Origin: Malacoraja senta
Taxonomy: Eukaryota
DNA length: 64,000 bases
Reading direction: 5' to 3'
NCBI GenBank assembly: GCA_038087875.1
Contig: CM075990.1
Span: forward strand, 8,310,001 to 8,374,000
The position numbers were made by a program, and so were the translations under genes. This document shows, in pieces, positions 380-60,727 of the stretch. The first letter of the stretch is position 1. Each line of letters opens with the position of its first letter. Below the pieces are notes generated by a model. The model worked only from the letters and a program-made list of their open reading frames with translations, had not been told where the DNA came from and did no database searches.

Positions 380-563
380 AGTCTGAAGAGGGGTCTCGAT
401 CCGAAACGTTGCCTATTTCCTTCGCTCCATAAGTCTGAAGAAGGGTCTCGACCCAAAATGTTGCCTATTTCCTTCGCTCTATAGATGCTGCCTCAGCCGC
501 TAAGTTTCTCCAGCATTTTTGTCTACCTTCGATTTTCCAGCATCTGCAGTTCCTTCTTAAACA
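380..563 (+). mobile_element. Penelope-like pLTR with tandem 52-bp hammerhead-motif duplication and ~35-nt tail
   Basis: Units 380-431 and 432-483, then gatgctgcctcagccgct...ccagcatctgcagttccttcttaaaca. Confidence 0.85.
383..410 (+). ncRNA. Minimal type I hammerhead ribozyme motif
   Basis: CTGAAGA-G-GGGT(CTCG)ATCC-GAAACGTT. Confidence 0.65.
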
Positions 564-1172
564 AATGAATGAAGGATATGCATTAAAGCCGTTCACAGCA
601 GCTCCACTTTAACACAGGGATCTCATGGAAAAGATTCATAGTGCAAACTTATTCAAAGGAGAAGATATTCCCACATTGGTTTGCAAGCGCAGGAAACCTT
701 TTCAATATTTCAACCCATCAACTTGTGTTTTTTTTTTCTCGTGTTGTCAGTGATAGCAGGCCATTAATAAATGATGATTTACATAGTCTGCAGCTGTGAA
801 TGCTGATCCCCAAATCAACGGCAAAGCCAGAGGCGGACACAGTGTTAGGTTTGCAGGTGAAGTCTACTGCACTTGGTGAAATGTAACCCACTAATCATCA
901 GTCCTAATCAATGGGTTTCATCTGCGTCAACTGAATAATCTATAATTATCTTTCACTAATCTGGTTTTCTTGATTCACGCTCCACATGCTCAGTAACCTA
1001 TGAACAATATTGACGTAAATTTTAAGCTGTTCCTTCAAGCTCCCGAGCAGTCGGCTTCTGAAAACCTACAGTTGCAAATTGACGATTTTTTTCAGCACCT
1101 TTCCTTCTTTCATTTTTTCCGTCTGCTCCATTCTGTCTGATTTCTTGTGGATCCTCCAGCCTAATATTGTCA

Positions 1173-1602
1173 CTGGCCTATATTCGTTGGAGTTTAGAAG
1201 AATGAGGGGGGACCCCATTGAAACGTATGGCGTAGTGAAAGGCTTGGACAGAGTGGATGTGGAGACGATGTTTCCACTCGTGGGAGAGTCTAGGACTAGA
1301 GGTCATAGCCTCAGAATTAAAGGACGTTCCTTTAGGAAGGAGATGAGGAGGAATTTATTTTGTCCGAGGGTGGTGAATCTGTGGAATTCTTTGCCACTGA
1401 AGGCTGTGGAGGCAAAGTCAGTGGATATATTTAAGGCAGAGATAGATAGATTCTTGATTAATATAGGTGTCAGAGGTTATGGGGAGAAGGCAGGAGAATG
1501 GGGTTAAGATAAGAGGGAGAGATAGATCAGCCATGATTGAATGGCGGAGTAGATTTGATGGGCCAAATGGCCTAATCCTACTCCTATTACTTATGACCTT
1601 AT
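1173..1602 (+). mobile_element. CR1 LINE 3' fragment
   Basis: LYSLEFRRMRGD...TRGHSLRIKG...RVVNLWNSLP ORF2 C-terminus plus 3' UTR, homologous to the 12962-14698 ORF. Confidence 0.9.
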
Positions 1603-1667
1603 ATATACACACATACAGATATACTGAGCTTATTTGTTATTAATTATGGTGTTTATGGTGTCTTGTT

Positions 1668-1917
1668 ATGGTGTCTTGTAGCGGCTCGTACGAATAAAAA
1701 GTAAAAATAATTTTCATCACAGGTATTTTTTTTACTCGTGGACATTTTTTACATGGATGAAAAACGTCACGAGTTTACCGGATGTCCCGAGTACCTACCG
1801 TTAGCATTACGAGCCGCTACGAGACATCCACAAACTCCTACCGACCCGCTACGGACATTCTCCGAGTTCGAATCAGGGGAGAACTCGTGAATTACCTCGT
1901 ACAGTGGGACAGCGCCT
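1668..1917. mobile_element. One-ended MITE of the agggcctgtcccact-TIR family
   Basis: Ends agtgggacagcgcct|taa; internal sequence resembles 28700-29007. Confidence 0.75.
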
Positions 1918-2064
1918 TAAAGTCTTTCCACAATGCCCTCCACATCAGTCTTGCAAATTCTTGCAGAATGTATGTGTAATTTCTGTACAGGTTACGTATA
2001 ATTTTGTGTGTTTGAATCAATGTGCCTGTGATGCTGTTGCAAGCATGATTTTCATTGTACCTCA

Positions 2065-2309
2065 GGGCAGCATGGTGGTGCCGTGGTAGAGTTGCTGCCT
2101 TACAGCGCTTACAGCGGCAGCGATCCGAGTTCTACGGGTGCAGTCTGTACGGAGTTTGTACGTTCTCCCCGTGCCCGTTGGGTTTTCTCTGAGATCTTTG
2201 GTTTCCTCCAACACTCCAAAGACCTACAGGTTTGCAGGTTAATCGGGTTGGACGCGGTGGGCCGAAGGGCCTGTTTCCGCGCTGTATCTCTAAACTAAAC
2301 TAAACTAAA
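2065..2309 (+). mobile_element. HE1-type tRNA-derived SINE (internally deleted)
   Basis: tRNA-like head, gtttgtacgttctccccgtg core, gggcctgtttccgcgctgtatctc(taaac)n tail. Confidence 0.85.
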
Positions 2310-3140: not shown

Positions 3141-3865
3141 GTGCAGGAAGGAACTGCAGAGCTGGTTTACATTTAAGATAGCCACATAAGGCTTGGATAG
3201 AGTGGATGTTTCCATTAATGGGAGTAGCACGAGAGATCATAGCCTCAGAATTAAAGGACATTCTTTAAGGAAGGAGATGAGGAGGAATTTCGTTAGACGG
3301 AGGGCAGTGAATCTGTGGAATTATTTGCCAGAAAAGGCTGTGGAGGCCAAGTCAGTGGATATTTTTAAGGCAGAGAGATAGATTCTTGATTAGTACGGGT
3401 GTCAGAGATTATGGGGAGAAGGCAGGAGAATGGGGTTAGTAGTGAAAGATAGATCCGCCATGATTGAATGGCGGAGTAGACTTGATGGGCCGATTGGCCT
3501 AATTCTGCTCCTATCACTTATGATCTTATGAAAATGCTGTAGTAACTCAGTGGAACAGGCAGCATCTCTAGATAGAAGGAATGGATGATGTTTCGGTTTG
3601 AGACCCTTCATCAGACCGAGTCAGGGGAGAGGGAGAAACAGAGATAAAGTATGTAAGGTGTGAAAATGAGACATCAAAGGGGACGAGGTCCAAGGAAAAT
3701 GTAGAATAGATCATTGTTAGTTAGGGGAAGGTGACAATGAAGCACACAGATTGAAAAATGTAACCCTGGGGGGCGGTGAGACTGGTCGGAGGACTAGGAT
3801 GGTGGAGGGATGGAGAGAGAGGGGAAGCAAGGGTTACTTGATGTTAGAGGAGTCGATATTCATAG
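3141..3865 (-). mobile_element. Penelope-like 3' end (GIY-YIG terminus MNIDSSNIK*, 3' UTR, degenerate hammerhead, tail)
   Basis: Reverse strand reads atgaatatcgactcctctaacatcaagtaa and ctgatgaagggtctcaaaccgaaacatc; 10-bp TSD aataatattt at 3131-3140 and 3866-3875. Confidence 0.85.
3189..3530 (+). mobile_element. CR1 3' fragment nested in the Penelope pLTR
   Basis: HSLRIKG...VNLWNYLP plus 3' UTR; the pLTR resumes at 3531. Confidence 0.9.
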
Positions 3866-5542: not shown

Positions 5543-7229
5543 CAGGGGCGGTGTGGTGTGGGACATACCCCCCAAGTTTTTGTGCTCCGGATTTTAAAAT
5601 CTCCGCTTTCCGCGAGACAGTTGGGGCGGGACTGATGATCGAGGGCGCTGATTGGACGAGAGAGACGTCGGTCAGCAGGCAATGGGGGCGGGACATGATT
5701 CAGCGCGATGATTGGAGGAGGGAGACATGGCACAGACCTGCGCATCATCCGCAGGCAGGATCGATCCCGGCCGGGTCTCCGGCGCTGTCCCGTCCCCACC
5801 CGAGTACCCCCCCCCCAAGGGTGGCCAGAGGTCGGCAGCAAAGATCTTCCGCTATAGGATCTTTGGTCGGCAGTCAGACGGGCCAGCGCAGAGAAGCAGC
5901 GCTAAACCTAGGTATGTTACAATACTTACCTTCAGCGGTGCTGCAATTCTGCCACTGGCCGTGTGCGCGATTTTGGCGCTTTTAAGGGGGGGGGGGCGGG
6001 GTTAAAATGCGGGTTTCTCGTACCTTGTCCTGAATTATATTTCGTTGGAGTGCAAGCGTTTGCTGAAAAATCGTTCCGACCGGCGTTTTGTGTATTTTTT
6101 ATTTTTATTCGATCGACAATTTCAGCGCTGGAGTCATTTTAAAATCAGCTTCGAAAGCCGTCAACGCCGACAACGGGGACGGATTTCACACACGGGACAG
6201 GTAAACAAAAGCAGTATATTTTTCATAATAAAAGTGCTTCTTAAGAAGCCTTTAATTCACATTTTTTAATGCGAAACGGTAATTCTTTTCCCCGAACTAA
6301 CGGCAGAAATTTTCATGCCGATACGGGGTTAAATTCACTGCAAATCAATGTTCCAATTGATCGCATTCCAGAAAAACCCACTCGCAAGATGATTTAAATG
6401 CCCATTAATTTACAGGTATTAAACATTAAATTCCTTCCATTTGGCCTGTAAATCCATGACAATGAGATTTAAAATTTATGTTATATTGTGAATTCTTGTG
6501 TGAATGTTATTTGGACACAGGCTATTTAAAAATGTTAATCTATTCTTAAGAAATTGATAGATGTTTAGATCTAGTAATTGAATTTTGTAATTAGCTACAA
6601 TTAGGTAACTAACTAATTATATGCTTTAATTTCATGTCTTCTAAGTAAGATTGTTTCATATTTGTTTCAGAATGCTTCAATCTATAATAACTGAAAATTT
6701 CTTTCAGTTCTCTTAATTTTTAAGAAAGTTATGGGCTTTTGACTGTCCTCGATCACAGCTTTTGTGTTAAGTCAATGGAAAAGCAATAGGGAACAAGATG
6801 CTAATTTCCGAGTATGAAAATGGCCATACCTTTTTTAATACTGAAGATATGAAAGTGAATTAGGTGTCAAATTAAACTTCTTTTTATGCTTTATCTGATG
6901 GGATAAATTACAGACTTTATTTTTAAAATCTCAAAATTTTGTAACATTGCTACTAAACCCAGCTAACTCCGCCTGTCCCGCCAGGTGAGCTTACAACCCT
7001 TCCTGGACTTGCGGGAAATATGGCCAGCGCGGAGAAGCAGCGCTGGTGTCCCGTCAGTCCAGGCAGGGCTGTAGTTAACCCAATGAGACAGGCAGTTGAG
7101 CTGCATTTGGCGCTGGATTGAGCCTCCGAAGCCTCGCGCGCGTGTGTGTGTGAGTGCGCATGCGCGCGTGGCCGCCAAAAAATTGTGTCCCCCGTCCCCT
7201 CCATGTTTTGATAGCAATTTCCGCTCTTG
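5543..7229. mobile_element. Non-autonomous hAT-like DNA transposon
   Basis: Termini caggggcgg / ccgctcttg; perfect 8-bp TSD tgaagaag (5535-5542, 7230-7237); CpG-rich. Confidence 0.8.
5909..6952. mobile_element. Second hAT-like element nested in the first
   Basis: TIR taggtatgttacaa / ttgtaacattgcta (12/14); direct repeat ctaaacc at 5902-5908 and 6953-6959. Confidence 0.75.
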
Positions 7230-7322
7230 TGAAGAAGGGTCTTGACCTGAAACGTCACCCGTTCCTTCTCCCCAGAGATGCTGCCTGTCCCGCTTTGTTA
7301 CTCCAGCTTTTTGTGTCTATCT
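7230..7322 (+). mobile_element. Downstream half of the Penelope pLTR/hammerhead split by the hAT insertion
   Basis: tgaagaagggtcttgacctgaaacgtcacccgttccttctccccagagatgctgcc... Confidence 0.8.
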
Positions 7323-7882
7323 ATGGTGTACCTCCACTTTCCTCTGGCTCTGATGACAGTTCAGCACTGATGAGTGGTTCCGAGTGGGTGAACGACAAAT
7401 AGTTTCAGAATGTATCTCCGTTAAGACTTGGAAGGCAAAATGCGGACTTTTTTGTTTCTTGGAGCTGACAAGTAAAAATCCATCGCACAGAGAAATGTGC
7501 AGGACTGCAACGTGTGCAGCATGTGAAATGGGCAATTTTCCCTCTAGGGTGTCCTCCCCCACCTTTGCAGTTGGAATGAAGGGTTCCCAAGGGTTCCAAT
7601 CTGTTCTATTTGCATTGCTGGAGACTCCAGTAGCCCCCAAGGATTGCACATTAGGAGAGAAGATTGCAACATCATCTTTGCTTTTAAGATCCAAGTCCCT
7701 GTGTACATTACAATTTTATTTTTCCAATCTGGAGCCAATGGCAAATGGCTTCTTGTTTATTGTAACATAATGTGAGAGGCAGAACCAACTAAAGGCCCTG
7801 TGGCCCTTATACCAACAGTGGCACATATTAATATCATGGCCAGGTTGTTTTTGTGAGGTTGGTTGAAGGAGGGATATTGCTT

Positions 7883-7936
7883 CTCTCCATAGATGCTGCC
7901 TCACCCGCTGAGTTTCTCCAGCATTTTTGTCTACCT
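7883..7936 (+). mobile_element. Very short Penelope pLTR insertion without hammerhead
   Basis: ctccatagatgctgcctcacccgctgagtttctccagcatttttgtctacc flanked by ttgctt/ttgctt. Confidence 0.7.
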
Positions 7937-7977
7937 TTGCTTAAGATGAGGATAACTTTTGTGCTCTTCAAAATACC

Positions 7978-9679: not shown

Positions 9680-10282
<603 letters not shown>

Positions 10283-10534
10283 ATCGTTCAGTGTTAAGCA
10301 GCACATTGCCTCGGTTAATGCGTAGACAGCTTGTAAACAGGAGATCAGAACATGGTGGACAGCACACTTTAATGATCTGGGAACATGATTTAAGAGCCTT
10401 TGATTAATTGAGAAAATATATATCCTTTATGCCAATAAAAATGTTAAAGGAACAAGCATTGAGCAGATGGTGGGTGCAAGGTGGTTGATACATGCAGCAC
10501 TGTGCTGCCCTTTATGGAGTGAAGGCGATGGTAT

Positions 10535-10880
10535 AAAAAACAAACTGCAGGAGGAACTCAGCCAGTTGAGCAGCATCTGTGGGGGAAGGAATTGTAGACA
10601 TTTTGAGTCAAGTTACTGCATCAGGACTGAGAGTGCGAGGCTGTGTAAAGAGGAGAGGGGGAATATTGGGACCAGTCAGTAGATGATGTGTGGACCGAGG
10701 GGTGGTGAATGGTAATGGGCGGATGAAGTCAGGTGGGGGAGGAAGAGTGGTGGAGTTGTCAGATGAGTGATAGGTGGACGGAGTCAAGGAGAAAAAAATG
10801 GGAGGTGGAACCTGGCGGAGGGAGGGGAGGGTGAAGGTGGAGACAGCTGGTGGTGGGTGATAAGCAGGAACACACACTAT
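10535..10880 (-). mobile_element. Old Penelope-like 3' UTR/pLTR
   Basis: gaggaactcagc...gcagcatctgtg...gcatcaggactg; reverse strand has a decayed ctgatg..aaaatgtc motif. Confidence 0.55.
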
Positions 10881-12376: not shown

Positions 12377-12547
12377 TAGACACAAATAGCTGGAGTAACT
12401 CAGCAGGTCAGTCAGCATCTCTGGAGAAAAGGCATACATGATGTTTCGGGACTCGACCCTTTTCTCCAGAGATACTGTCTGACCAGCTGAGTTACTCCAT
12501 CTTTTTGTGTCTATCTTCGGTTTAGACCAACACCTGCAGTTCCTTCC
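12377..12547. mobile_element. Palindromic Penelope-derived element
   Basis: tagacacaaa..ggagtaactcagc / gctgagttactcc..tttgtgtcta inverted arms plus tail. Confidence 0.8.
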
Positions 12548-12552
12548 GATAC

Positions 12553-14797
12553 TGGGTATTTTAGACTGGGTATTGAGTAATGAGGAAGGGTTAGTTAGCA
12601 GTCTTGTTGTACGTGCCCCCTTGGGCAAGAGTGACCATAATATGGTTGAGTTCTTCATTAGGATGGAGAGTGACATTGTTAATTCAGAAACAATGGTTCT
12701 GAACTTAAAGAAAGGTAACTTTGAGGTTATGAGACGTGAATTGGCCAAGATTGACTGGCAATTAATTCTAAAAGGGTTGACGGTGGATATGCAATGGAAG
12801 ACATTTAAAGACTGCATGGATGATGCGTACAAATTAGCCAGAAAAAGCAGCATACCGGAGGACTGGGAGAAATTCAGAGACCAGCAGAGGAGGACAAAGG
12901 GCTTAATATGGAAAGGGAAAATAGATTATGAAAGAAAACTGGCAGGGAACATAAAAACTGATTGCAAAAGAGATTAGTTAAAACAAATGTAGGTCCCTTG
13001 CAGTCAGAAACAGGTGAGTTGATAATGGGGAACAAGGATATGGCGGACCAATTGATTAACTACTTTGGTTCCGTCTTCACTAAGGAAGACATAAATAATC
13101 TGCCGGAAATAGCAGGGGACCGCGGGTCAAAGGAGTTGGAGGAATTGAGTGAAATCCAGGTTAGTCGGGAAGTGGTGTTGGGTAAATTGAATGGATTAAA
13201 GGCCGATAAATCCCCAGGGCCAGATAGGCTGCATCCCAGAGTACTTAAGGAAGTAGCTACAGAAATAGTGGATGCATTAGTAATAATCTTTCAAAACTCT
13301 TTAGATTCTGGAGTAGTTCCTGAGGATTGGCGGGTAGCAAACGTAACTCCACTTTTTAAGAACGGAGGGAGAGAGAAAACGGGGAATTACAGACCAGTTA
13401 GTCTAACATCGGTAGTGGGGAAACTGCTAGAGTCAGTTATTAAAGATGGGATAGCAGCACATTTGGAAAGTGGTGAAATCATTGGACAAAGTCAACATGG
13501 ATTTACGAAAGGTAAATCATGTCTGACGAACCTTGTAGAATTTTTCAAGGATGTAACTAGTAGCGTGGATAGGGGAGAACCAGTGGATGTGGTGTATCTG
13601 GACTTCCAGAAGGCTTTCGACAAGGTCCCACATAAGAGAATAGTATACAAACTTAAAGCACATGGCATTGGGGGTTCAGTATTGATGTGGATAGAGAACT
13701 GGCTGGCAAACAGGAAGCAAAGAGTAGGAGTAAACGGGTCCTTTTCACAATGGCAGGCAGTGACTAGTGGGGTACCGCAAGGCTCAGTGCTGGGACCCCA
13801 GCTATTAACAATATATATTAATGATCTGGATGAGGGAATTGAAGGCAATATCTCCAAGTTTGCAGATGACACTAAGCTGGGGGGCAGTGTTAGCTGTGAG
13901 GAGGATGCTAGGAGACTGCAATGTGACTTGGATAGGCTGGGTGAGTGGGCAAATGTTTGGCAGATGCAGTATAATGTGGATAAATGTGAGGTTATCCATT
14001 TTGGTGGCAAAAACAGGAAAGCAGACTATTATCTAAATGGTGGCCGACTAGGAAAAGGGGAGATGCAGCGAGACCTGGGTGTCATGGTACACCAGTCATT
14101 GAAAGTAGGCATGCAGGTGCAGCAGGCAGTGAAGAAAGCGAATGGTATGTTAGCTTTCATAGCAAAAGGATTTAAGTATAGGAGCAGGGAGGTTCTACTG
14201 CAGTTGTACAAGGTCTTGGTGAGACCACACCTGGAGTATTGTGTACAGTTTTGGTCTCCAAATCTGAGGAAGGACATTATTGCCATAGAGGGGGTGCAGA
14301 GAAGGTTCACCAGACTGATTCCTGGGATGTCAGGACTGTCTTATGAAGAAAGACTGGATAGACTTGGTTTATACTCTCTAGAATTTAGGAGATTGAGAGG
14401 GGATCTTATAGAAACGTACAAAATTCTTAAGGGGTTGGACAGGCTAGATGCAGGAAGATTGCTCCCGATGTTGGGCAAGTCCAGGACAAGGGGTCACAGC
14501 TTAAGGATAAGGGGGAAATCCTTTAAAACCGAGATGAGAAGAACTTTTTTCACACAGAGAGTGGTGAATCTCTGGAACTCTCTGCCACAGAGGGTAGTCG
14601 AGGCCAGTTCATTGGCTATATTTAAGAGGGAGTTAGATGTGGCCCTTGTGGCTAAAGGGATCAGAGGGTATGGAGAGAAGGCAGGTACGGGATACTGAGT
14701 TGGATGATCAGCCATGATCATATTGAATGGCGGTGCAGGCTCGAAGGGCCGAATGTCCTACTCCTGCACCTAATTTCTATGTTTCTATGTTTCTATG
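12553..14797 (+). mobile_element. Young 5'-truncated CR1 LINE
   Basis: APE endonuclease end (LDWVLSN..SDH), RT, 3' UTR and (tttctatg)n tail; gatac at both ends. Confidence 0.95.
12962..14698 (+). CDS. CR1 ORF2 reverse transcriptase and C-terminal domain (uninterrupted, no native start)
   Basis: KSPGPD, NYRPVSLTS, LDFQKAFDKVPH, GVPQGSVLGP, KFADDTKL motifs in a 578-aa frame. Confidence 0.93.
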   Translation: MQKRLVKTNVGPLQSETGELIMGNKDMADQLINYFGSVFTKEDINNLPEIAGDRGSKELEELSEIQVSREVVLGKLNGLKADKSPGPDRLHPRVLKEVATEIVDALVIIFQNSLDSGVVPEDWRVANVTPLFKNGGREKTGNYRPVSLTSVVGKLLESVIKDGIAAHLESGEIIGQSQHGFTKGKSCLTNLVEFFKDVTSSVDRGEPVDVVYLDFQKAFDKVPHKRIVYKLKAHGIGGSVLMWIENWLANRKQRVGVNGSFSQWQAVTSGVPQGSVLGPQLLTIYINDLDEGIEGNISKFADDTKLGGSVSCEEDARRLQCDLDRLGEWANVWQMQYNVDKCEVIHFGGKNRKADYYLNGGRLGKGEMQRDLGVMVHQSLKVGMQVQQAVKKANGMLAFIAKGFKYRSREVLLQLYKVLVRPHLEYCVQFWSPNLRKDIIAIEGVQRRFTRLIPGMSGLSYEERLDRLGLYSLEFRRLRGDLIETYKILKGLDRLDAGRLLPMLGKSRTRGHSLRIRGKSFKTEMRRTFFTQRVVNLWNSLPQRVVEASSLAIFKRELDVALVAKGIRGYGEKAGTGY

Positions 14798-18504: not shown

Positions 18505-18700
18505 AAGACACAAAGACCTGGAGTAACTCAGCGGCTCAGGCAATATCCCGAGAGATCAAGGATAGGTGACATTTTGGGTCGGTTCCCATCTTCGGGCCCC
18601 TTTAATCTGAAGAAGGGTCCCGACCTATCCAAGCATCACCTATCCATGCTCTCCAGAGAAGCTGCCTGACCACTGAGTTATTCCAGGTCTTTGTGTCCTT
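18505..18700. mobile_element. Palindromic Penelope-derived element with decayed hammerheads
   Basis: gacacaaagacctggagtaactcag / ctgagttattccaggtctttgtgtc arms; central ctgaagaagggtcccgacc. Confidence 0.8.
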
Positions 18701-20827: not shown

Positions 20828-21510
20828 TGCATTTGGAGTTTTGTGTTCGGATTTGATCCCACTGCTACATAGGAAAGATGCTGTTAAGCTGGAAAGAGTG
20901 CATAGAAGATTTACAAGGATGTTGCCAGTTCTCGAGGCTCAGACTTTATTCCTTGGAGCACAGGAGGCTGAGGGCCTTAGTGCTTGTAGATCTTATAGGT
21001 GTATATAATTATGAGGAGAATAGATCGTGTGAATGTACAGAGTTGTTTTTTACCCGGAGTAAGGAAATTGCAAACCCGAGGACATGGGTTTAAGGTGAGA
21101 GGGGAAAGATTTAACAGGGCAACGTTTTCCACACCGAGGTTGGTAGGTGGACACAAAATGCTGGAGTAACTCAGCGGGGAGGCAACATCTCTGGAGAGAA
21201 GGAATGGGCCCGTTCCTTCTCTCCAGAGATGCTTCCTCACCCGCGAAGTTACTCCAGCATTTTGTGTCTACCTTCGATTTAAAACAGCATCTGCAGTTCT
21301 TTCTTACACAGAGGTTGGAAGGTATATGGAACGAGCTACCAGAGGAGGTAGTTGAGGCAGGAACTATAATAACATTTCAAAGATATTTGGACAGGATAGG
21401 ATAGGTTTAGAGGGCGATTGGCCAAATGCAGGTAAGTGGGACTAGCAGAGGTGATGCATTTTGGTTAACATGGGCTAGTTGGGCCGTGCTGCAAGACTCT
21501 ATGATTCTAC
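20828..21510 (+). mobile_element. CR1 3' fragment
   Basis: LYSLEHRRLR, GIWNELPEEVVEAG, 3' UTR ending gactctatgattcta. Confidence 0.8.
21149..21305. mobile_element. Palindromic Penelope-derived element nested in CR1
   Basis: ~60-bp inverted arms; flanks acaccgaggttggtaggt / acacagaggttggaaggt. Confidence 0.85.
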
Positions 21511-21609: not shown

Positions 21610-21817
21610 AAAGAAGGAACTGCCGATTCAGGTTTACACAAAAGGACCCAGAGTGCTGGATTAACTCAGCAGGTCAGGCAGCATCTCAGTAGGACATGGA
21701 TCGGTGACATTTCAGGTTTGGACACTTTGCAAGTGAGGGTCTCGACCTGGAATATCTCGTATACATGTTCTCCAGAGATGCTGCTTGACCCGCTGAGTTA
21801 CTCCAGCACTTTGTGTC
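21610..21817. mobile_element. Palindromic Penelope-derived element (older)
   Basis: gtgctggattaactcagc / gctgagttactccagcac arms. Confidence 0.75.
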
Positions 21818-22339
21818 ATTTATTCTGTTGCAGAAATGGCCAGTTTTCATGCAGAGAAAGTGAGTTATCCAAAGTCATAGCGTTCATGATGAGGCCGGGG
21901 GGATGGAAGATGTGGAGCTCTTGGCAAGTTGGGTGTGATTGTAAACACTGCAGGAGGCCAGAGATGGATGGGTCAGAGTGTGGGACATTCATGAGTTCTA
22001 GGAGCAGAATCTTTGGGACGTGGGAGGAAATCAGATCATCTAGGAGAAACACATGCTGTCACGGGAAGAACGGGCAACCTCCACACAGACAGCATCCGAG
22101 GTCAAGATTGAACCTGGATCTCTGGTGCTGTGTGGCAGTGGCTCTACTAGCTGCACCGCCTTGCTGCCCTCTCTCATGTACCTATCACATCAACTCCCTC
22201 TTTTATGAATGCTTCCGCCATTAACTAACATTAAGGAGTTACTCGCAATGGGCAATTAACCAGGTTTTTGAGATCTGGGTGGAATCTGGTGCAACCTGAG
22301 AAAAGCTAGCAGTCATGGGATGAACATGTAAACTCCACA

Positions 22340-24700
22340 GAGGCAGCATATAACCACCATTATCTGAAAGAAAAGTGATGTAGGGGCAGAAATTATTACA
22401 GTAACTCAAATTAGAGAAGCTAATAGTTACAAATGAATGTTAACAGGCAAAAATATTTTTTGTAAACATTTTGGAAAAGAGCATTGCAAGTTGAATGCAG
22501 TTAAACTACTTTTGCCAAGTAATATGTTCTAATAACAAGAGGGCAGCCATGACTAGATTTAGCAATGATTAATGAACCAGACAGTCAATGGTGGAGATAC
22601 ATTTATCTAATAATGATGACAATATCAAATTCAATATTAATTTTGGAAGCGGGAAACTTAACAAAGTTACCAAGATCCTCGATTTAATTATGGAATCAGG
22701 CAGAGAATGACAAAAGCAAACCTGTTAGATTTTTTATCACATTAACCTACAGATGGGTTGCGTGAGATGTGCAAGAGGAATTTAGCTTAATACAGTTAAA
22801 TGTAGCCCCCAGGGTGGAGAGGGTTACTGATAAATAAAACTGCCGACGTCTATCCAGAAATTCAGAGATAATGAGAAACTGAAGAGGAGTCAAGTGCAAA
22901 GACTGTTATCATCCAAGGGGCTGAGACTGATAAACAGTGGCAAAGGAAGACAAAAATGATAGTTAAACTAAAAAAGGAGCATAAAAAGAAATTCACTGAG
23001 GATAGCAAGATTTAAAAAAAATAAGTCCAGGTAATTTTAATCGAAGAAAAATATTAGACTATTGATGGAAACCCTCCAGGTTTTTATCACAAATAGAGGT
23101 GGCAGTCATGCATAATATATTTGTGCAAGTCTTTATAGAAGAGGTCGAGGTGAATATTGCAAATATTGGACAACTTAGTAAACAGAAAAAAACACCAAAG
23201 GATCACATAATCCTCAGAGCTGATAGGTCACCCAATTGATTCATTTCCAACATAATCTTCCAAAGAGCTCTCGATTCAATAATTTTCCTTGTAGATTGGA
23301 AAGTTGCAAATGCGACTCATTCAAGGTGAGCAAGAGATAAAGAAAAATAGGAAATTATAGTCCTGTCGGCTTAGCATCTGCTGAGGGGCAGTTACTGGAA
23401 TCCATAATTAATGATTGAACACTTAGAGAAACGAAGACTGATTAGAGAGTGGATTTGTAAATAGTAGCTCACTTCTTTCAAGTCGAATTGAATTATTTTA
23501 GAAAGTAAGTAAAACAGTGGACTCGGGAATATCTGTGCAAGTAATTTATATGGATTTCTAGAAGATATTCAATCAGTTTACACCTAAGAAGCTGTTAGCT
23601 AAAATTAAAACATGAAAATGAACTGCGCTGGAAATTGGTTGGGTAATAAAAGTCAGAATGCAGATATACTGCATTCATACTTGGGTTGGAATGAATTGTT
23701 TAGCAGTGTCTTGATAGGATCTGTGCTTAGATCACAGCCAGTCACTTTATTTTTTAATCATGCATAACACAAAAGAGAGACACAGGCCCAAGATTACTGC
23801 TGCAACAGAGATGTGTAATATCGTAAATAATGTAGATAGGAACATAAGATTTCTAAGAGATTGATAAATTAAGTCAGAAAGCAAAATTGTACTAGATGCA
23901 TTTTAATGTAGTTAAATAGCACTTTCCACATTAGAACAGAAGAAGATTGTGTAGGATGGAACTGCAGATGCTGGTTTACACCAAAGATAGATGCAAAATG
24001 CTGGTGTAACACAGTGGGAAGGTAGCATCTCTAGAGAGGCTGACGTTTCGGGTCGCGTCTGAAAAAGGGTCTCGACTGGAAACGTCACCCATTCCATCTC
24101 TCCAGAGATGCTGCCTGTCCTCCTGCTAAGTTACTCCAGCATTTTGTGTCCATCTTCAGAAGAAGATTGTTCAGATTGTAATTCAACTGGTGAAAAACTC
24201 AGTGTAGTTAAGGTCCAAAGAGATTTGGGGTCAATGAATACAGATCACTGAAATAATTATTTAGTTTTGAAAATAATCAAAAGGGTGAGTTGAAAGACAC
24301 CTTTCGGAAGTTAGGGTAGAACAAAGGGGGAAAGGTATCATACACAAGGCTCTGGTTAGACTCTAATTGGTGTGTTGTGTATGTTTCTGGGGACCTTGTA
24401 AAGAATAGATTCAGCTTTTACCAGGATGTTCCCAGGACATCAAGAGATGTTATACCAATGAAGCTTGTAATCTCAGGGATGTGAAAGTGGGAAGGGAAGT
24501 TTGATTGTTTTATTTTGATATTTTAAAAACAAAAATGAAAGCATTAAATGACGATATTTTCTGCTGGTAGATGCATAAAGGTGCAACCACCCAAAAAAAG
24601 CTATCAACCCATTGGAGGAAACTTGAGGAAACATTATCCTACACTGACAGTGATGGAACTGTGGAATTATCAATTAAGCAGTTTGAATCCGAAAGACTGA
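22340..24700 (+). mobile_element. Very old CR1 ORF2 remnant
   Basis: Decayed DWKVANA, GNYSPVGLAS, IYMDF*KIF motifs. Confidence 0.65.
23951..24156. mobile_element. Palindromic Penelope-derived element with 14-bp TSD
   Basis: cagaagaagattgt at 23937-23950 and 24157-24170; back-to-back hammerhead remnants at the centre. Confidence 0.9.
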
Positions 24701-26765: not shown

Positions 26766-26840
26766 TTGTGAAGGCTGGGGAAGGATGGACTTCCTCTCTT
26801 TAAGGCAATCGTGAGCCAAATGAATTCCTACAGCAAATGG

Positions 26841-26998
26841 AGAAAAGGAATAAGTGACGTTTCGGGTCGAGACCCTTCTTCTTGATCCGAAACGTCATCT
26901 ATTCCTTTTCTCCAGAGATGCTGTCAGAGCCACTGAGTTGCTCCAGCTTTTTTCGCCTATCTTCTGTTTAAACCAGCATCCGTAGTTCCTTCATACAC
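26841..26998. mobile_element. Penelope-derived element with short inverted arm
   Basis: gacgtttcgggtc...gatccgaaacgtc; imperfect TSD attcctacagcaaatgg / attcctacgataaatgg. Confidence 0.8.
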
Positions 26999-27654
26999 AT
27001 TCCTACGATAAATGGTATAGTTGTAGTTATCATGACAAATGACTGGTATTTTTATTAATTTCTATTTTAGTTTCTGACTAACTGCTTACATTTCTTAGCT
27101 GCTATGGTGCGATTTGATCTCCAACCTCTGAATTAATAGACTCATAATTTAACTGCCACATAACCACCATAATGTAATTTGGGGATTAGAACTGCTCTAT
27201 GATTTTCAGATGTAGGCTGAGCTGAGTTGTCGTACATTTAATATCATTTTCCTGCTTTATATTCTGTCCCCCTAGAAGTTGTTTGCACTTGTCAGTAGAT
27301 CCATTAACCTGGACCATTCATTTAACTGCTCTGTGTGTATGCATCACTAAATCCCTTTGCTCCTTCATCCCTTTTAGTTATTGTTTTGCAAGGGCTATTT
27401 GGCCTCTTTATTCTTCCCTAGTTATAAAAAAACTAATTATACTACTAGTTATAAAAACTAACAAGGGAGTCTTCAATACTCAGCAAGAAGTGAGGAACAA
27501 TAATGAGGTAATTACTCAGTTGCTCTATAACTGAGCTGTTGTTTAGGGCAGGAATGTGGTCCAGGAAACTAATGGAACCCTCTTCACTTTTACAACCGTG
27601 TCGCACATAACTGTACATGGGACACATGGTGCCCGCACAATACTCCGTCTGGAG

Positions 27655-35739: not shown

Positions 35740-36090
35740 CCTTCTCTCCAGAGATGCTGCCTGTCCCGCTGAGTTACTTCAGCTTTTTGCTTCTATCTTC
35801 GGTGTAAACCAGCATCTGCAGTTCCTTCCTACACACAGCTAGATGTCTGTGCCAGGTGTCAGTAGAGATGGTAGTATGATGCTGGGACCCCATGTTTGAG
35901 CAGAACTTGGACCACCCTCTAAACCCACCATGTGCTTGCTCAAGCTTCTGTTTGCCTCTAAATCACCTATGATATGATCTGATATTTCCAGAAGATAGAC
36001 ACAAAATCCTAGAGTAACTCAGCGGGACAGGCAGCATCTCTGGAGAGAAGGAATGCGTGACGTTTCGGGTCGAGACCCTTCTTCAGACTG
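35740..36090. mobile_element. Two Penelope pLTR pieces in opposite orientation (35740-35836 +, 35991-36090 -)
   Basis: Arms are reverse complements, separated by ~155 bp. Confidence 0.8.
36059..36086 (-). ncRNA. Minimal type I hammerhead ribozyme motif (intact)
   Basis: Reverse strand CTGAAGA-A-GGGT(CTCG)ACCC-GAAACGTC. Confidence 0.75.
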
Positions 36091-38032: not shown

Positions 38033-38084
38033 AACAGGAATGGTGTTATGATTAGATACACATGTTTTAATGTTGGTAATTGAA

Positions 38085-42016: not shown

Positions 42017-42217
42017 TATCCATGTACCTGTCCAAATCAATTTTAAATGTTATTATTGTATTTGTCTCAACTATCTCCTACTACAGTTCATTTCATATAC
42101 CCACCCTCCTGCTCCTATTTTCTTGTGATCGTATTTTCTTTACTCTGACATAACCTCAGTCACCAAAGAGTAATTTAGTATAATTGTAACAAAATAAGGA
42201 TGCATTAAATTAAACTG

Positions 42218-42382
42218 CTAGACACAAAATGCTGGAATAACTCAGCGGGACAGGCAGCATCTCTAGAGACCAGAAACGCCTCCCATTCCTTCTCTCCAGA
42301 GATGCTGCCTGTCCCGCTGAGTTACTCCAGCATTTTGTGTCTATCTTCGATTTAAACCAGCATCTGCAGTTGTTTCCTGCTC
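42218..42382. mobile_element. Palindromic Penelope-derived element
   Basis: Inverted arms plus tail; flanks aaattaaactg / aaattaaattg. Confidence 0.85.
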
Positions 42383-43829
42383 AAATTAAATTGATGTTTG
42401 CTTCCGAATGAATCTGAAGTGTTAGTGCAAGTTGGTGCTCGGTGCAATGCAGGGCAATATTGTTAAACATACAGCATAGCAGAGTCCATTACTGTATGCA
42501 TTGCCATATGGACATTTTATTTCATAGGCAGAAAACATTCATTAATCTCACTCCTGCTTTCCCTTTGATGCTCTGCAGTAGAAAGTCTTCTGGCTTCTCA
42601 GACCAAAAAAATCCTTTGAGGATGAAGATCGAGCTTTATCAAAGCGAGAATATTATTTTGATGTGAGTCAAAGATGCAGACTTGATGAATATTACAGACT
42701 GAAGTGAGACTTTCTAAATATAATTGTGCTTTACACTCCTAAAACAGTGTGGTACTGTAGGTTGGAATGGAGTTAGTGGACACTTAGCCTGCATTACAGT
42801 CTTCATTTGTAGTTCAAGCACATTGGAATGGATTAGTTCTTGAGTAAAGGACTCCTGTTAGGCTCACAAGAGCAGGCCTTTCCTGTAGTGATATCCTGGT
42901 CTTCTCTATGTACACAAGCATTCCATTGCCTCGCGTAGAATGGCCACAGCCGATAAACGGTGGGCCTGGTTGCTGCATGGTATTCCTTGTGTTACCCGTA
43001 TCATTGTACAAGACAGCTACCATAGTCTATCAGGCTGTAGCTGTGGAAAATAGAGATAGTCAATGTTTCGGTCTGAAGATCTTTCATCAGAACTTTATCT
43101 GAAGAGGCGTTGGCCATTGCCATCTGGGGACAATATGATAGAATTGTATTAATCTCAGGAAGGAAATTGATCTCCCACAGTCATAAAAACACAAAATACA
43201 TGAACCATGTAATTAAATTGACGAGTCGAGGGGATTGGGGATGTGCAAAGATTGGGTGGGGGGGTGGGGGGGGGAGGGGAGTCAGTCTCAGTCTACCCCA
43301 CGACAGAACCAAGGAGTCCATCCAGTGATCGGTAGACTGATAGTGTTATTCCACACTAACGTATGGAACCCCTTCATCTATGTAATCATCGATGCTTCTC
43401 TCCATAAGAGGTAGACAACTGGTGATCAAGGTAAAACATTAAGAGGTTGAAGGAAGATTGCAGCTGGATTCCCCCCTGGGCTTCAGACAGGAGCCACAGT
43501 CGTGGACCCATCCTCCTGTTGTGATGTGATCGGGATGCATGGGTTCAGTTTCAAGTTTTAGGTAGTGGAGTCTAAACCTAGAGGGCACATGTTTCGGGTG
43601 AGAGCAGAAAGATTTAAACGGGATTTGAGGCGCAGGTTGTCAACAGAAGTGGTGGTGGGCATATGGAAGGAGTTGCCAGGCAAAATGGTGGAGGTGGGTA
43701 CAATTACAATGTTTAAAAGACATTTGGACATTTCATGAATAGGAAAGGCTTACAGAGATAGGAACCCAATGCAGAAAAAATGGGCCGAGCTCAGAATGTC
43801 ACCTTGGTTGATACTGGGCCAATGGGCCA

Positions 43830-50386: not shown

Positions 50387-50847
50387 CATCTCAATCAGGT
50401 TCCCCTCAGTCTCTTCGGTTGCAAGGAAAACAAGTCCAATGTAATTTCATTACTGAAACTCTCCATCCAAGGCAATATCCTGGTGAATCTCCTTTGCACT
50501 CCTTCTAGTACAGTTACAGTATGTCCTTTTAGTGTGGCAACCAGAAATGTATTTTTAGTAATGTTTCATTTTCTAGTTAATGAAGACTGGTATCCCGTAT
50601 TTCCTTCGAACCACTTTTTCCAGCTGTGCAACTACCTTCAGGGAACCTTGGACTTAAAGATGGTCCTTCAGTTCCTCAATACTCCTGAGGGCCCTACCGT
50701 TTATTGCATCTCCTAGCCTTACTTGGCCTCCCAATATGTCTCACCTCATATCAAAATTAAATTCCTTCTGCCATTGTTTTGTGCATCTTTCCAACTCATC
50801 AAAAATTGTCTTAAGACTACATTCTGCACCATTAATAACACCACCAA

Positions 50848-51189
50848 CTCCCCCTCCCATTCCGAATCTGACCTTTCTGTCCTGGGCCTCCTCCATGGCC
50901 AGAGTGAGGACCACCGTAAATTGGAGGAGCAGCACCCCATATTTCGCTTGGGCAGTTTGCACCCCAGTGGTATGAACATTGACTTCTCTAATTTCAGGTA
51001 GTCCCTGCTTTCTCCTCCCCTTCTCAGCTCTCCCCCAGCCCACTGTCTCTGCCTCTTCCTTTCTTCTTCCCGCCCGCCCCCCCCCACCCTCACATCAGTC
51101 TGAAGAAGGGTCTCGACCCAAAATGTTGCCTATTTCCTTCGCTCCATAGATGCTGCCTCACCCACTGAGTTTCTCCAGCATTTTTGTCT
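50848..51189 (+). mobile_element. Penelope-like 3' end: GIY-YIG C-terminus, 3' UTR, hammerhead pLTR
   Basis: SHSESDLSVLGL..RKLEEQHPIFRLGSLHPSGMNIDFSNFR*; accaccaa on both sides. Confidence 0.9.
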
Positions 51190-51429
51190 ACCACCAAGTT
51201 TGTGTAATCTGTAAACTTATTAATCATACCAAACTGTATTCACATATAAATCATCGATATATCCACCACACAATAAGTTTCTATTCACACATTCCTTTCA
51301 GCACAACTACTCAAGAACTCCCTGTCTTAAAAACAACCCTCCACCATCTCTCTCTGCTTCCTTTTACCAATCCAATTTGGGATCTAATTTGCCAATTTGG
51401 CCTGGATTGCAAAATATCTAATCTTCTGG

Positions 51430-51856
51430 GTCGGTCCTCCGGTCGGTCCGCAATAACTAACCTGACCTCCCGGTGGCTCAGCACTTCAACTCCCCCTCCC
51501 ATTCCGTATCTGACCTCTCTGTCCTGGGTCTCCTCCATGGCCACAGCGAGCCCCAACACCGGAAATTGGAGGAAATGCACCTCATATTCCGCTTGGGCAG
51601 TCTACATCCTCGGGGCTTGAACATTGAATTCTGCCAATTCTGCTAGCCCTTGCTATCCCCTCCCCTTCATCAGCCCACTGGTTGTCTCCTCCCCTCCTCC
51701 AGCCCTCGGGCTCCTCCTCCGCCTTTTTTCCTTTTTTCCTTTCTTCTCCCCACCCCCTATCAGTCTGAAGAAGGGTTTCGGCCCGAAACGTTGCCTATTT
51801 CCTTCGCTCCATAGATGCTGCTGCACCCGCTGAGTTTCTCCAGCATTTTTGTGTAC
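51430..51856 (+). mobile_element. Penelope-like 3' end, second subfamily
   Basis: LPVAQHFNSPSH..RKLEEMHLIFRLGSLHPRGLNIEF; perfect 15-bp TSD tatctaatcttctgg (51415-51429, 51857-51871). Confidence 0.92.
51765..51792 (+). ncRNA. Minimal type I hammerhead ribozyme motif (intact)
   Basis: CTGAAGA-A-GGGT(TTCG)GCCC-GAAACGTT. Confidence 0.75.
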
Positions 51857-54444: not shown

Positions 54445-54640
54445 TAAAGGAAAACACAGTGTTGGAGTAACTCAGCAGGTCAGGCAGCATCTCTGGAGAA
54501 CATGGATGTTTTGGGTTGGGACTGAAGAAAGATCACCTCCTGAAATGTCACCTACCCAGATCTTCCAGAGAAGCTGACGAGTTACTCCAGCACTTTGTTT
54601 ATTATTAAATAACCAGCATCTGCGGTTCCTTGTTTCTACA
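54445..54640. mobile_element. Palindromic Penelope-derived element (older)
   Basis: tggagtaactc / gagttactcca arms, central ctgaagaaag...ctgaaatgtc. Confidence 0.75.
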
Positions 54641-57147: not shown

Positions 57148-57555
57148 CAGAATTGAAGGATGTTCTTTTAGGAAGGCGATGAGGAGAAATTTCTTTACTC
57201 AGAGGCTGGTTAAACTGTGGCATTCTTTGCCACAGCAGGCTGTGGAGGCCAAGTCAGTGGATATTTTTAAGGCAGAGATAGATAGATTCTTATTAGTGCG
57301 GGTGCCAGGGGTTATGGGGAGAAGGCAGGAGAATGGGGTTAGGAGGGAGAGATAGATCAGCCACGATCGAATGGTGGAGTAGACTTAGTGTTAAAGAAGG
57401 AACTGCAGATGCTGGGGTCTGAAGAAGGGTTTTGGCCCGAAACGTTACCTATTTCCTTCGCTCCATAGATGCTGCTGCACCCGCTGAGTTTCTCCAGCAT
57501 TTTTGTGTACCGGTGGAGTAGACTTGATGGGCCAAATGTGCTAATTGTGCTATTT
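57148..57555 (+). mobile_element. CR1 3' fragment
   Basis: Matches 1173-1602; interrupted at 57387-57511. Confidence 0.88.
57387..57511 (+). mobile_element. 125-bp hammerhead mini-element
   Basis: Perfect 14-bp TSD ggtggagtagactt (57373-57386, 57512-57525); motif at 57419-57446. Confidence 0.9.
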
Positions 57556-57769
57556 GCGAGTTCCATTTTCTCACTGCTCTTTTGAGTTCCTCACAGGATC
57601 ACTTCGGATAGACAAAACATTGCAAACAATCATACCTGTTAGTTCCACCATCTCACCATTAAACGGACAAAGAAACTTAATTTGCCGAAAGTGCCCCACT
57701 AACCTTTTTAGCCTCAGCCCACCAGTGATATTCCTTTTGTTCCAACCACCATCCCCACCTTCTCATTAG

Positions 57770-57955
57770 TGATTGGAGCAGAATTAGGCCATTTGGCCCA
57801 TCAAGTCTACTCCGCCATTCAATTATGGCTGATCTATCTCTCCCTCCTAACCCCACTCTCCTGCCTTCTCCCCATAACCCCTGACAACTGTACTAAACAA
57901 GAATCTATCTATCTCTGCCTCAAAAATATCCATTGACTTGGCCTCCACAACCTTC
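57770..57955 (-). mobile_element. CR1 3' UTR fragment
   Basis: Reverse complement of the neighbouring CR1 subfamily. Confidence 0.85.
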
Positions 57956-58769
57956 TCACCTGCTGTATACCAACTTCTTTTTCTCTCTTATCCCAGCCTT
58001 ATAACATTAACAGTTTTCCTTTCCACAAATGCTGCCTGACATTTCCAGCTTTCCAGAAAATGTCCAGCTTTCTGTGTCCTTATTTTGCACCAGCTAATGC
58101 TCGGGATGCTGTAGCTAAAATAGAGAGCGAGCGGTGGAATGTATCTGTGTGGGCGTGCAGGGAACAACACAAAGTGATTGATGCTTCATTTGATTGTGCA
58201 GTCATATTTCAATGTCCTATGAGCAGGAGCAGACACAACTTATATTAATCTAACAAAATACATTTTGTTGCACATCTATTATCCACACCATCGACGAGGC
58301 TGAACACCACATTGTCATATAAACATAATATCTCCAAAACGAGTCTCACCTTTAATTTGACACATACCTAATGCCTTTTCTGAAGAATGCTACAATTTTA
58401 TGACTCTCTAGTGAAAAGGCTCTGATGAGCTTGAAGTATCTACAGTTGTAAAGCTCCTTATCAGATTGATTAAATCAGGAAGATTAAAGTCACATGTTCA
58501 TTGATTCTGACCTGATCTTCGGTTCGTCTCTATGAATTCCTATCACCGAGATCTTGTATTAAGAAGCATTATATGAAGCTGGAGGATTCTTTTTTGTATA
58601 CTCATTTGATCTGCATAATGGCTTTCCACTTGGCACACATATCTCCCTCCCATGCCCCCCCCCCACCCCCCCCCCCCCCCCCCGCTCCTGAAGATATTCG
58701 GCAGTTTATCTGTTTCATAGCCATTCCAAACTACCATGTGATTGAGAGACCAGGGAGGTGATCACCGAT

Positions 58770-59070
58770 ACGGTGGCGCAGCAGTAGATTTGCTGCCTTT
58801 ACAGCGCCAAAGACCTGGGTTCAATCCTGACTATGGGTGCTGTCTGTATGGAGTTTGTACGTTCTCCCCGTGAACTGCTTGAGTTTTCTCCGGGAGCTCC
58901 AGTTTCCTCCCACACTTCAAAGACGTATAGGTTTGTAGGTTAATTGGCTTGGTAAAATAGTAAATTGTCCCTAGTGTGTGTAGGATAGCATTAGTGTACG
59001 GGGATCTCTGGTTGGCTCGGTGGGCTGAAGGGCCTGCTTCCGTATTTCTGAAGTAAACTAAACTAAACTA
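58770..59070 (+). mobile_element. HE1-type SINE
   Basis: Full copy. Confidence 0.9.
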
Positions 59071-59097
59071 TAACCATGTTGGTCATGCCCAATTGTG

Positions 59098-59428
59098 TTA
59101 GTTTTAGTTCAGTTTTAAAGTTTAGAGATACAGCGCAGAAACAGGCCCTTGGGCCCACTGAGTCCGCACCGACCACCGATCCCCGCACATTAACACTATC
59201 CTACAAACATGAGGCACAATTTTATATTTATACCAAGCCAATTAACCCACAAAATTGTACGTCTTTGGAGTGTGGGAGTAAACCGAAGATCTCGGAGAAA
59301 ACCCACACGGTCACGGGGAGAATGTACAAACTCTGTACAGACAGCACCCGTAGTCAGGATCGAACCTGGGTCTCTGGCGCTGTAAGTGTTGTAAGGCAGC
59401 AACGCTACCACTACGCCACTGTGCCGCC
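59098..59428 (-). mobile_element. HE1-type SINE
   Basis: Full reverse copy, tail-to-tail with the previous one. Confidence 0.9.
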
Positions 59429-60241
59429 ATATTCTCACAAGGACGTTGATATGTCACAGATCTCCGTTCAACTCCGTCCCTCCTCAACATGCAAGGAATA
59501 CTGACACCCTTCGTAGAGACCCCATGTTGTGGCTGCAGGCAGAATTGATCACCTCAACACTAATAGCACCTTTGCCCAGTAACATATCGGATGGTTAACT
59601 TGCTATCAGAGACGAAGCATATATCGGTATTTTGCTTTGTCTTCCTAGGTTGAGTTGATATTAGCCAAAGGGTTTGTGTTCAACGGACCAGTAGTATTGT
59701 CCTTGTGTGTCGCTACCCATTTAAAATAAGCATCCATTGTACAAATTCTTTCTGCATCTGAATACTTCTGATGAACTTTCCTTCTAATTTCTTGTATAAA
59801 ATTCCTATGGTTGCTTTTTTTTTGCCTCCAATGGTGAAGGGGATAAATAACGTTTTGCAACCACACAGTTTTCTTTTGCCTTCGTGCTCTGTTACTGAAA
59901 ACAAATGACACGTCAGTTCATACAAGACTCTGAACTGCCTTTCCAATGGACTTTTCACGTTGTGGTATAATTTGTCTGTTGTTCATTGCCCCTGAGAAGA
60001 TGGCAGTGAACTGACTTCTTGAACCTTACTCTGAAGATTCTCCTTCAGTGCTGTTGGATAAGGGATTCTAAAATATAACTCCAGTGAACAATGATGGACC
60101 AGCAATATAGTTCTAAAGCAGAAGAATAGGTGACTTAGAGGGAAACAAAAACAGTAATGTTCTAGCCTTTGCATTTCTAAGTGTCAGAGATGACAAGTTT
60201 GGGCAGTGCTATCAAAGTAGCCCAAGTGAATATGTGCAATG

Positions 60242-60333
60242 GTACACAAAAATGCTGGAGAAACTCAGCGGGTGCAGCAGCATCTATGGAGCGAAGGAAA
60301 TAGGTAACGTTTCGGGCCGAAACCCTTCTTCAG
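60242..60333 (-). mobile_element. 92-bp hammerhead mini-element
   Basis: TSD atatgtgcaatg (60230-60241, 60334-60345); starts exactly at CTGAAGA. Confidence 0.9.
60306..60333 (-). ncRNA. Minimal type I hammerhead ribozyme motif (intact core)
   Basis: Reverse strand CTGAAGA-A-GGGT(TTCG)GCCC-GAAACGTT. Confidence 0.7.
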
Positions 60334-60727
60334 ATATGTGCAATGATGTTCTTTGTAGACGACACATCTTGTAAACGAGAAGTGGAGTGAATGAATGAAG
60401 TAGCAGTCAAGGAATGTCAGCTTTCTATGGTGTTATGGTCATTAACTTCTACTAAGCCAGTATATCTACAGGCCAGTGGATAGTGTTCTTTTACAATCTT
60501 CATCTTTGTAGATGGTTGAAAGTCTCTGGGGTGTAAAGAGGTGAATCACTTGTCACAGAATACACTTGCAGTATTTATGTGGCTGATACACAGATTTTCT
60601 AGTCAGTTGGGTACCCTTGGAGATTATTGTGGCTAATGATGTGATGTGGTGCTATTGAATACCAAGGGAATGTGGTCTCTTCCCTGATGCAGATTGTCAA
60701 TGGCATGAATGTTACATGGTGCTAATA

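Follow-up and report, generated by a model that had tools for sequence, protein, structure and literature searches.

The dispersed repeats in a 64,000-nucleotide stretch of the Malacoraja senta genome (contig CM075990.1 of assembly GCA_038087875.1, forward-strand positions 8,310,001 to 8,374,000; hereafter the window) are almost certainly the end modules, or pseudo-long terminal repeats (pLTRs), of a young, intact and endonuclease-positive Penelope-like element (PLE), and they bear a minimal hammerhead ribozyme motif. About half of the young copies are stubs of ~95 nt, many with target-site duplications, which start 0–3 nt 5' of the hammerhead core. This 5' edge is sharp, and ends at the predicted hammerhead cut site form a minor class at best. 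The sequence around the edge suggests that the RNA of the element probably starts just 5' of the hammerhead, and the dispersed copies are likely inert, dead on arrival.

The source element and its copy number

The preliminary description of the window had ascribed the repeats to PLEs of more than one subfamily, and both points are borne out by the open reading frame (ORF) and pLTR anatomy of intact copies and by the several lineages present. Locus L132 is a partial tandem with a period of 3918 bp, in which a hammerhead (3213), an ATG (3376), an ORF of 1212 aa with a reverse transcriptase (RT) and a GIY-YIG endonuclease, a stop codon, a pyrimidine-rich untranslated region (UTR) of 117 nt and a further hammerhead (7131) follow one another, with one hammerhead per pLTR; no duplication was found flanking this tandem. 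The 1212-aa ORF is also present in L131, and inverted 5'-truncated arms are carried by L137 and L138. The hammerhead, the two 3' ends described below and the tail lie ~160 nt 5' of the ATG. DNA 5' of the long copies encodes the C-terminal end of the PLE protein, and a core lies within 330 nt 3' of 71 of the 90 distinct endonuclease C-termini obtained by pooling loci of this genome with metagenome loci. Long copies are mostly 99.1–99.5% identical (one is 95.7%). A 177-aa query gave 41,399 first-look candidates in the genome; the 150 that were scored are all 100% identical over the 177 aa, three of them in open frames of 1224 codons.

Pfam searches of the ORF returned RVT_1 (E 6.6e-6) and GIY-YIG (E 1.4e-3), both below the curated cut-off; its homologues carry the RT and GIY-YIG domains too, and the closest named ones, at 65–73% identity, are from sharks and rays. 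A DKG motif, a CX4CxxC linker (CNRKRCNTC) and a CCHH motif (CSRC...H...H) can be read in the ORF. A CX2-5CxxC linker together with CCHH is common to Neptune and Nematis and absent in Penelope/Poseidon, and by the definitions in PMC8557442 the element fits Neptune or Nematis, as far as motifs place it. It shares with the Neptune-clade PLEs of Craig et al. 2021 (PMC8557442) a single ORF with DKG, RT, CX4CxxC linker and C-terminal GIY-YIG with CCHH, as well as the partial tandem, the inverted 5'-truncated arm and the tail at one end, whereas its long proline-rich N-terminal region (1212 aa in total) and its clear 11–17-bp duplications in non-microsatellite targets set it apart from them. Two or three direct repeats of ~75 bp, varying in number among copies, lie in the proline-rich N-terminal part of the ORF (L131:4288-4515). 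PLE sequence at 66% identity is also found within a ray protein whose annotation is that of a kinase-domain isoform; this is either an exonised element or an annotation artefact. No paper was found on Penelope/Neptune transposable elements of skates.

Two of the window copies had been described as directly following GIY-YIG C-termini. They do lie 3' of ORF ends, which are 80% and 91% identical to the intact ORF (tblastn), but only the last 51–61 codons of the endonuclease domain precede them, not the GIY-YIG motif itself, and the Pfam search did not recognise these two short ORF ends.

Genome-wide motif work relied on exact patterns and on a minimal-hammerhead descriptor comprising the core, a helix II of at least 4 bp, a palindromic 15.2-16.2 and an NUH triplet. 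An exact 27-mer occurs 42,813 times in the genome (reversed control 0), in keeping with the very large load of motifs foreseen earlier. A sample of 1.3 Mb (130 stretches of 10 kb spaced at fixed intervals, for the most part on the largest contigs) holds 55 cores that pass the descriptor, all of this family, against 0 in the reversed-sequence control; this density of ~42 per Mb extrapolates to ~82,000 cores genome-wide. The same sample contains 465 remnants of the downstream pLTR part, each inverted pair being counted twice. The published minimal-hammerhead counts taken as yardsticks are ~4,000 for coelacanth and ~9,000 for Xenopus (PMC4209133), which the exact matches alone exceed ~5–10-fold.

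As regards the window, matching of the family motif with up to 4 substitutions gave 12 copies, in line with the dozen or so first reported, against 0–1 in each of 20 simulated windows. The descriptor returned exactly the five cores that had been called intact and no other window match, and the decayed cores were recovered as well (Table 1). The downstream part of the pLTR has 29 window matches, several as head-to-head inverted pairs, and the family is thereby larger than had been stated.

Hammerhead anatomy and predicted activity

The minimal hammerhead of animal PLEs, with an extra base after A9 and a palindrome, was described by Cervera and De la Peña in 2014 (PMC4209133), and the minimal type I anatomy with palindromic helix III recognised at the outset in the window matches their motif, the ACGT palindrome included. 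The points of likeness are CUGANGA plus one extra base before helix II, G10.1-C11.1, the palindromic 15.2-16.2, the lack of loop 3, the short helix I, one motif per pLTR, mostly dispersed singles from truncated elements, and CUGAAGAA, the common form in fish, coelacanth, Xenopus and reptiles. The main lineages studied here differ by their 4-bp helix II with a tetraloop and their 2-bp helix I. The extra A after A9 is genuine, but it is standard in PLE minimal hammerheads (PMC4209133), and the analogy with a viroid drawn for it is unneeded. As the motif and its link to PLEs were published in 2014, the kind is already known. No cartilaginous fish appears in supplement file 2 of PMC4209133, and no report was found, judging from titles, abstracts and term counts, of hammerheads in cartilaginous-fish PLEs or of clustering at their 5' edge.

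A core of the form CUGANGA(N)...GAAA with an NUH triplet is present in the five window copies and the 55 of the sample. CTGAAGA is the family form; of the CTGA(A/T)GA consensus first proposed, the CTGATGA variant is found in the copy at 3587(-) alone among the 12 listed. The change from U-A to U.G in helix II is likewise real but one-sided, so that pairing is altered on one strand only, and helix II varies within this genome on one side only. A comparison with Rfam yielded no hammerhead among 19 window matches at E<=5 and none at the gathering score.

In a check of pairing across lineages, over 19 sequences 90.1% of cells are paired, a level reached by 0 of 500 shuffles, and slid controls gave 14–45%; helix II is 97% paired across lineages, with U-A, U.G or C-G at 10.4, and helix I has G-C or C-G at 2.2. 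In a distant relative from a public metagenome, whose protein is 34–48% identical at the C-terminus, the same core occupies the same position, and C-G replaces both the U-A of helix II and the G-C of helix I. The excess of pairing across lineages indicates that source elements keep the structure. What tells against giving this much weight is that two-sided base changes occur only between distant lineages and amount essentially to two lineage differences, not twelve events. Beyond the core, a distal helix I may form between CUAU/CUCU on the upstream side and AUAG/AGAG on the downstream side (L132:3205-3260 and other lineages); this candidate changes jointly between two lineages, other lineages fit another register, and stubs would be without it.

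The dispersed copies had been taken as a very large load of potentially self-cleaving motifs; on a stronger reading they would be working ribozymes across the genome, and cleaved RNA would be the main insertion template. The density of descriptor-passing cores, the retention of all catalytic bases in the young lineage and the structure kept across distant lineages are what such a load would present, and PLE hammerheads are able to cleave as dimers or with protein (PMC4209133, PMC11167929). The copies themselves speak otherwise. Catalytic G12 decays like any CpG (G12 and G16.2 are each kept in 38 of 50 long copies, non-CpG core sites in 45–49 of 50), the helix II probability is <0.15 in 7 of 8 folded copies, usually because the purine-rich core pairs with pyrimidines 3' of the cut site, and helix I has, as was noted from the start, a mere 1–4 bp. 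The youngest lineage carries a GUU triplet, which is slower than GUC, the copies lie mostly far from any dimer partner, and only a minor share of the ends falls at the cut site, as the counts given below attest. In published work, minimal PLE hammerheads do not cleave as monomers and cleave only weakly as dimers (PMC4209133), and the Anolis PLE hammerhead cleaves only with the element's protein and is dispensable for insertion in vitro (PMC11167929). CpG decay, predicted misfolding and this weak activity together make general activity of the copies unlikely, and a working load that supplies the main template is decidedly improbable. Selection would keep the hammerhead only in source elements, where it probably cleaves weakly, as a dimer or with the element's protein.

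Copy ends and insertion anatomy

Positions are numbered with C3 of the core as 0, the predicted cut falling between +27 and +28. Of 167 copies from the 1.3-Mb sample, anchored 3' of the cut site, 69 begin at -5 to +1, 44 at +2 to +11, 18 at +12 to +25, 7 at +26 to +30 and 2 beyond, and 27 continue into the UTR; an earlier pass had 56 of 142 beginning at -7 to +1 and 3 at +27 to +29. Junctions across the genome, each required to have three non-element bases directly 5' of the element, number 36 at -7, 1,748 at -2, 63 at +23, 278 at +28 and 231 at +33, where the -7 and -2 patterns cover the lineage A core only and those from +23 to +33 cover lineages A and B; 27 of the first 100 junctions at +33 are a one-base insertion variant. 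The young core keeps 11 upstream bases in 6,736 copies and differs at -7 in 9,114. Among the first 100 listed of the latter, 24 are a UTR variant, and an upstream match of 0, 1, 2, 3, 4, 5 or 6 bases is seen in 9, 8, 27, 17, 3, 9 and 3, respectively, from which about half of the young cores start at the edge. Stubs starting at the cut site were considered as the main class and are ruled out by the minority of +28 among the ends. Some points count against so sharp a picture: the junction patterns differ in the lineages that they cover, old long copies in the 167-copy sample may be miscalled as edge copies, microhomology blurs junctions by 1–3 nt, and junctions at +28 are 4.4 times those at +23, so that a minor cleavage-derived class may exist.

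Contigs of presumed-RNA runs from other organisms also contain this pLTR segment, whose loose ends there fall at the same three places, although contigs cannot show starts, ends or expression, and no RNA run holding the element was found among the sequencing runs listed for the search. A crossover test at -3 versus +28 in the four-gamete style, on a sample biased to the youngest lineage, did not separate the template routes for long copies.

At the other end, 60 of 104 copies terminate at +93–96 and 22 at +124–131, two places ~35 nt apart. Target-site duplications are mostly 11–17 bp, with three clear ones in the window, and no duplication is detectable in 20 of 46 short copies; from the 26 with a duplication, 3 far and probably chance matches were set aside, and in 15 of the 23 kept the duplication ends at -4 to +3. 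Inverted arms usually differ by the tail, as described for PLEs (PMC8557442). Perfect inverted junctions read CTTC-AG(A/T)CT-GAAG, the sequence that annealing of two cDNAs with ends at -3 should produce. In many copies part of the first 10–50 nt is copied a second time before the sequence restarts at (A)GT.

The Anolis element likewise has two internal reverse-transcription starts (the 'tail' rule), for which hammerhead cleavage is not needed (PMC11167929). The likeness to this Poseidon element, PAc (Frangieh et al. 2024, PMC11167929), extends to the spacing, ~35 nt apart and 3' of the hammerhead, and to there being no sign of cleaved RNA as main template. In contrast, the PAc ORF begins within the hammerhead and its RT starts lie in the ORF, whereas those of the present element, with hammerhead and tail, precede the ATG; the text of PMC11167929 reports no pile-up of 5' ends before the core.

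A probable transcription start at the 5' edge

A pyrimidine tract, TCAGT and the core follow one another at the edge. The initiator (Inr) consensus is YYANWYY, and TCAGTCT fits it with +1 at A(-3). The base before the AGT-core is G in 810 cases against A or T in 1,170, a G fraction of 0.41 where ~0.28 is expected; in 22 distinct loci, a single extra G precedes AGT in 5, G is the last of two extra bases in 5 and G lies inside the duplication in 3, the rest being ambiguous. Extra G at the ends of full-length L1/SVA copies has been attributed to cap copying (PMC3287187). In the distant relative TATAAA stands at -37 in 46 of 64 copies, which places the start near -7, and no AG precedes helix I. 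On these grounds the RNA probably starts at A(-3), the RNA ends themselves being predicted.

Several observations weigh against such a start. The G excess is not specific: G is also common at cut-site junctions, and it sits inside the target duplication at 3 of the 22 loci and is possibly templated at others. The present lineage has no TATA box, and the pyrimidine tract with CAG|T makes a good 3' splice site as well; Drosophila virilis Penelope has an intron whose end coincides with the 5' edge of helix I, and its transcription begins ~120 nt upstream (PMC4209133, PMC2377424). The pile-up could therefore mark a 3' splice site, or a protein roadblock, in the same element rather than a transcription start. 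This would agree with the retention of the pyrimidine tract and CAG|T across lineages whose UTRs otherwise differ, with the donor-like AAG|GTATG at the ORF start and with the splicing of most D. virilis Penelope transcripts (PMC4209133, PMC2377424). However, splicing is established to give no free 5' end at the acceptor, genomic copies joining the ORF-start donor to the CAG|T acceptor number 0, the stub directly adjoins the duplication in 15 of 23 copies and leaves no room for an upstream exon, and the distant relative lacks AG there while having its TATA box at start-site spacing. We hold a splice site or roadblock to be an unlikely cause of the pile-up. A search for back-spliced or cis-spliced products of the ORF-start donor and the CAG|T acceptor, made for that donor only, gave 0 matches, and no long host-exon pieces were found between duplication and stub in the 23 short copies.

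The origin of the stubs

The dispersed end modules are best seen as dead-on-arrival copies, and, with a start at A(-3) preferred, about half of them probably arose when reverse transcription began ~95 nt inside the RNA and ran off at its capped 5' end, before the motif. If the A of TCAGTCT is the transcription start, priming at the 5'-proximal site would give run-off cDNAs of ~97 nt that integrate as stubs. Such cDNAs could pair head-to-head through the near-palindrome AG(A/T)CT, and could re-prime on the template to leave short local duplications.

Stubs of very high number with fixed ends and target duplications might also be expected of a non-autonomous family, akin to short interspersed elements or retrozymes, that multiplies from its own copies, and PLE-derived retrozymes have been described in vertebrates (bioRxiv 10.64898/2026.07.22.740005). 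Yet the commonest stub haplotypes occur in long copies as well, and the stubs are without the ORF sequence further downstream on which priming depends in the Anolis element (PMC11167929) and usually without the upstream Inr bases. Retrozymes are tandem units averaging ~100–650 bp by class (bioRxiv 10.64898/2026.07.22.740005), whereas the stubs encountered here are single or inverted. The non-LTR retrozymes of Li et al. 2026 (bioRxiv 10.64898/2026.07.22.740005), one of them chondrichthyan, are similarly derived from pLTRs, hammerhead-bearing and non-coding, but theirs are tandem and the present copies are single or inverted products of an autonomous element; in the window the sole adjacent pair (383/435) arose by partial re-copying of 52 nt, and one of its cores is decayed. 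Self-multiplying stubs are thus very hard to credit, and run-off from the capped RNA is retained as the probable origin of the stubs.

Other features of the window

The copies and remnants of the family are collected in Table 1. At 43063-43090(-) and 10542-10630(-) lie hammerhead-like pLTR remnants of far greater age, with CTGATG cores and another helix II, which are probably from earlier PLE lineages.

Table 1. Members of the PLE family in the window (positions within the 64,000-nt stretch)
Positions	Strand	Description
383..410	+	Core of a minimal hammerhead (GUU triplet; one G.U in helix II) with C3 at 383, forming the first half of a local re-copy; GAGT 5'
432..563	+	pLTR stub, decayed core at 435 (G12>A, C15.2>T), ~35-nt tail
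3531..3626	-	Older pLTR copy, decayed core 3587-3614, sole listed CTGATGA copy
7229..7330	+	Older pLTR stub, decayed core at 7229 with C3>G
7877..7937	+	pLTR remnant truncated 3' of the cut site, without core
12377..12555	.	Head-to-head inverted pair of pLTR ends, junction within the core
18506..18697	.	Inverted pair with decayed core at 18607
21145..21313	.	Inverted pair, junction adjoining the predicted cut site, without core
21613..21827	.	Old inverted pair of pLTR ends
23948..24157	.	Inverted pair with decayed core at 24059
26837..26999	.	Inverted pair with decayed core 26856-26883(-)
35740..35835	+	pLTR remnant with tail, without core
35991..36090	-	pLTR stub, intact core 36059-36086, GUC triplet, 2-bp helix I; single case of 8 folded with helix II predicted
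42216..42389	.	Inverted pair of pLTR ends
50846..51192	+	5'-truncated PLE: last 51 endonuclease-domain codons, 3' UTR, decayed core at 51100
51430..51854	+	5'-truncated young PLE between the copies of a 17-bp duplication (1 mismatch); keeps the C-terminus of the endonuclease, a pyrimidine-rich UTR, TCAGT and the intact core at 51765
54460..54620	.	Old inverted pair of pLTR ends
57387..57511	+	Stub, intact core at 57419, inverted tail piece 5'; 14-bp duplication 57373-57386 / 57512-57525
60242..60333	-	92-nt stub beginning at C3, intact core 60306-60333; exact 12-bp duplication 60230-60241 / 60334-60345
61280..61360	-	Old pLTR remnant with tail, without core

Among the neighbours, a fold-back element of 595 bp (61437-62031), with two 280-nt arms that are 97% complementary and a 35-nt spacer, looks like a miniature inverted-repeat transposable element or an internally deleted DNA transposon; it accounts for the weak microRNA-model matches in the window. 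An open frame of 578 codons with RT (12962-14698(+), RVT_1 E 7e-32) belongs to a long interspersed element (LINE) family which we take to be CR1-like, and many short 3' fragments of that family are scattered through the window. Other LINE-type fragments, with RT and an ALKBH8_N-like C-terminal match, lie at 38080-38970(+) and 34338-34742(-) and are presumably L2/Rex-like. A long CA-type microsatellite and a CT-rich low-complexity tract (9902-10297 and 32746-33460) give rise to spurious open frames there.

Implications for Penelope-like elements

Overall, the repeats add a populous and still young vertebrate example to a motif already described, not a new kind, and the start and stop points of reverse transcription are recorded in their tens of thousands of almost identical insertions. 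The map of ends argues against cleaved RNA as the main template and points to an RNA start just 5' of the hammerhead. Long copies need templates that reach past -3, namely read-through tandems, cleavage-made circles (as proposed in 2014) or the jump of a short cDNA to the downstream pLTR. As a tentative and somewhat doubtful extension of the last route, the pLTR segment from -3 to ~+94 may work like a retroviral R region, in which RT, primed close to the 5' end of the RNA, would make a strong-stop cDNA of ~97 nt ending at the cap, and this would have to jump to the identical segment of a downstream pLTR for the ORF to be copied. The literature on Penelope elements yielded nothing for most of these notions when it was searched for strong-stop, strand transfer, template jump or tandem. 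Were the R-region reading true, failed jumps would account for the tens of thousands of stubs and mis-jumps for the local re-copies, and repeated jumps would build the partial tandems that characterise PLEs, with no need of hammerhead cleavage or RNA circles. The findings thus bear on two questions in PLE biology, namely the purpose of the hammerhead and the formation of partial tandems.

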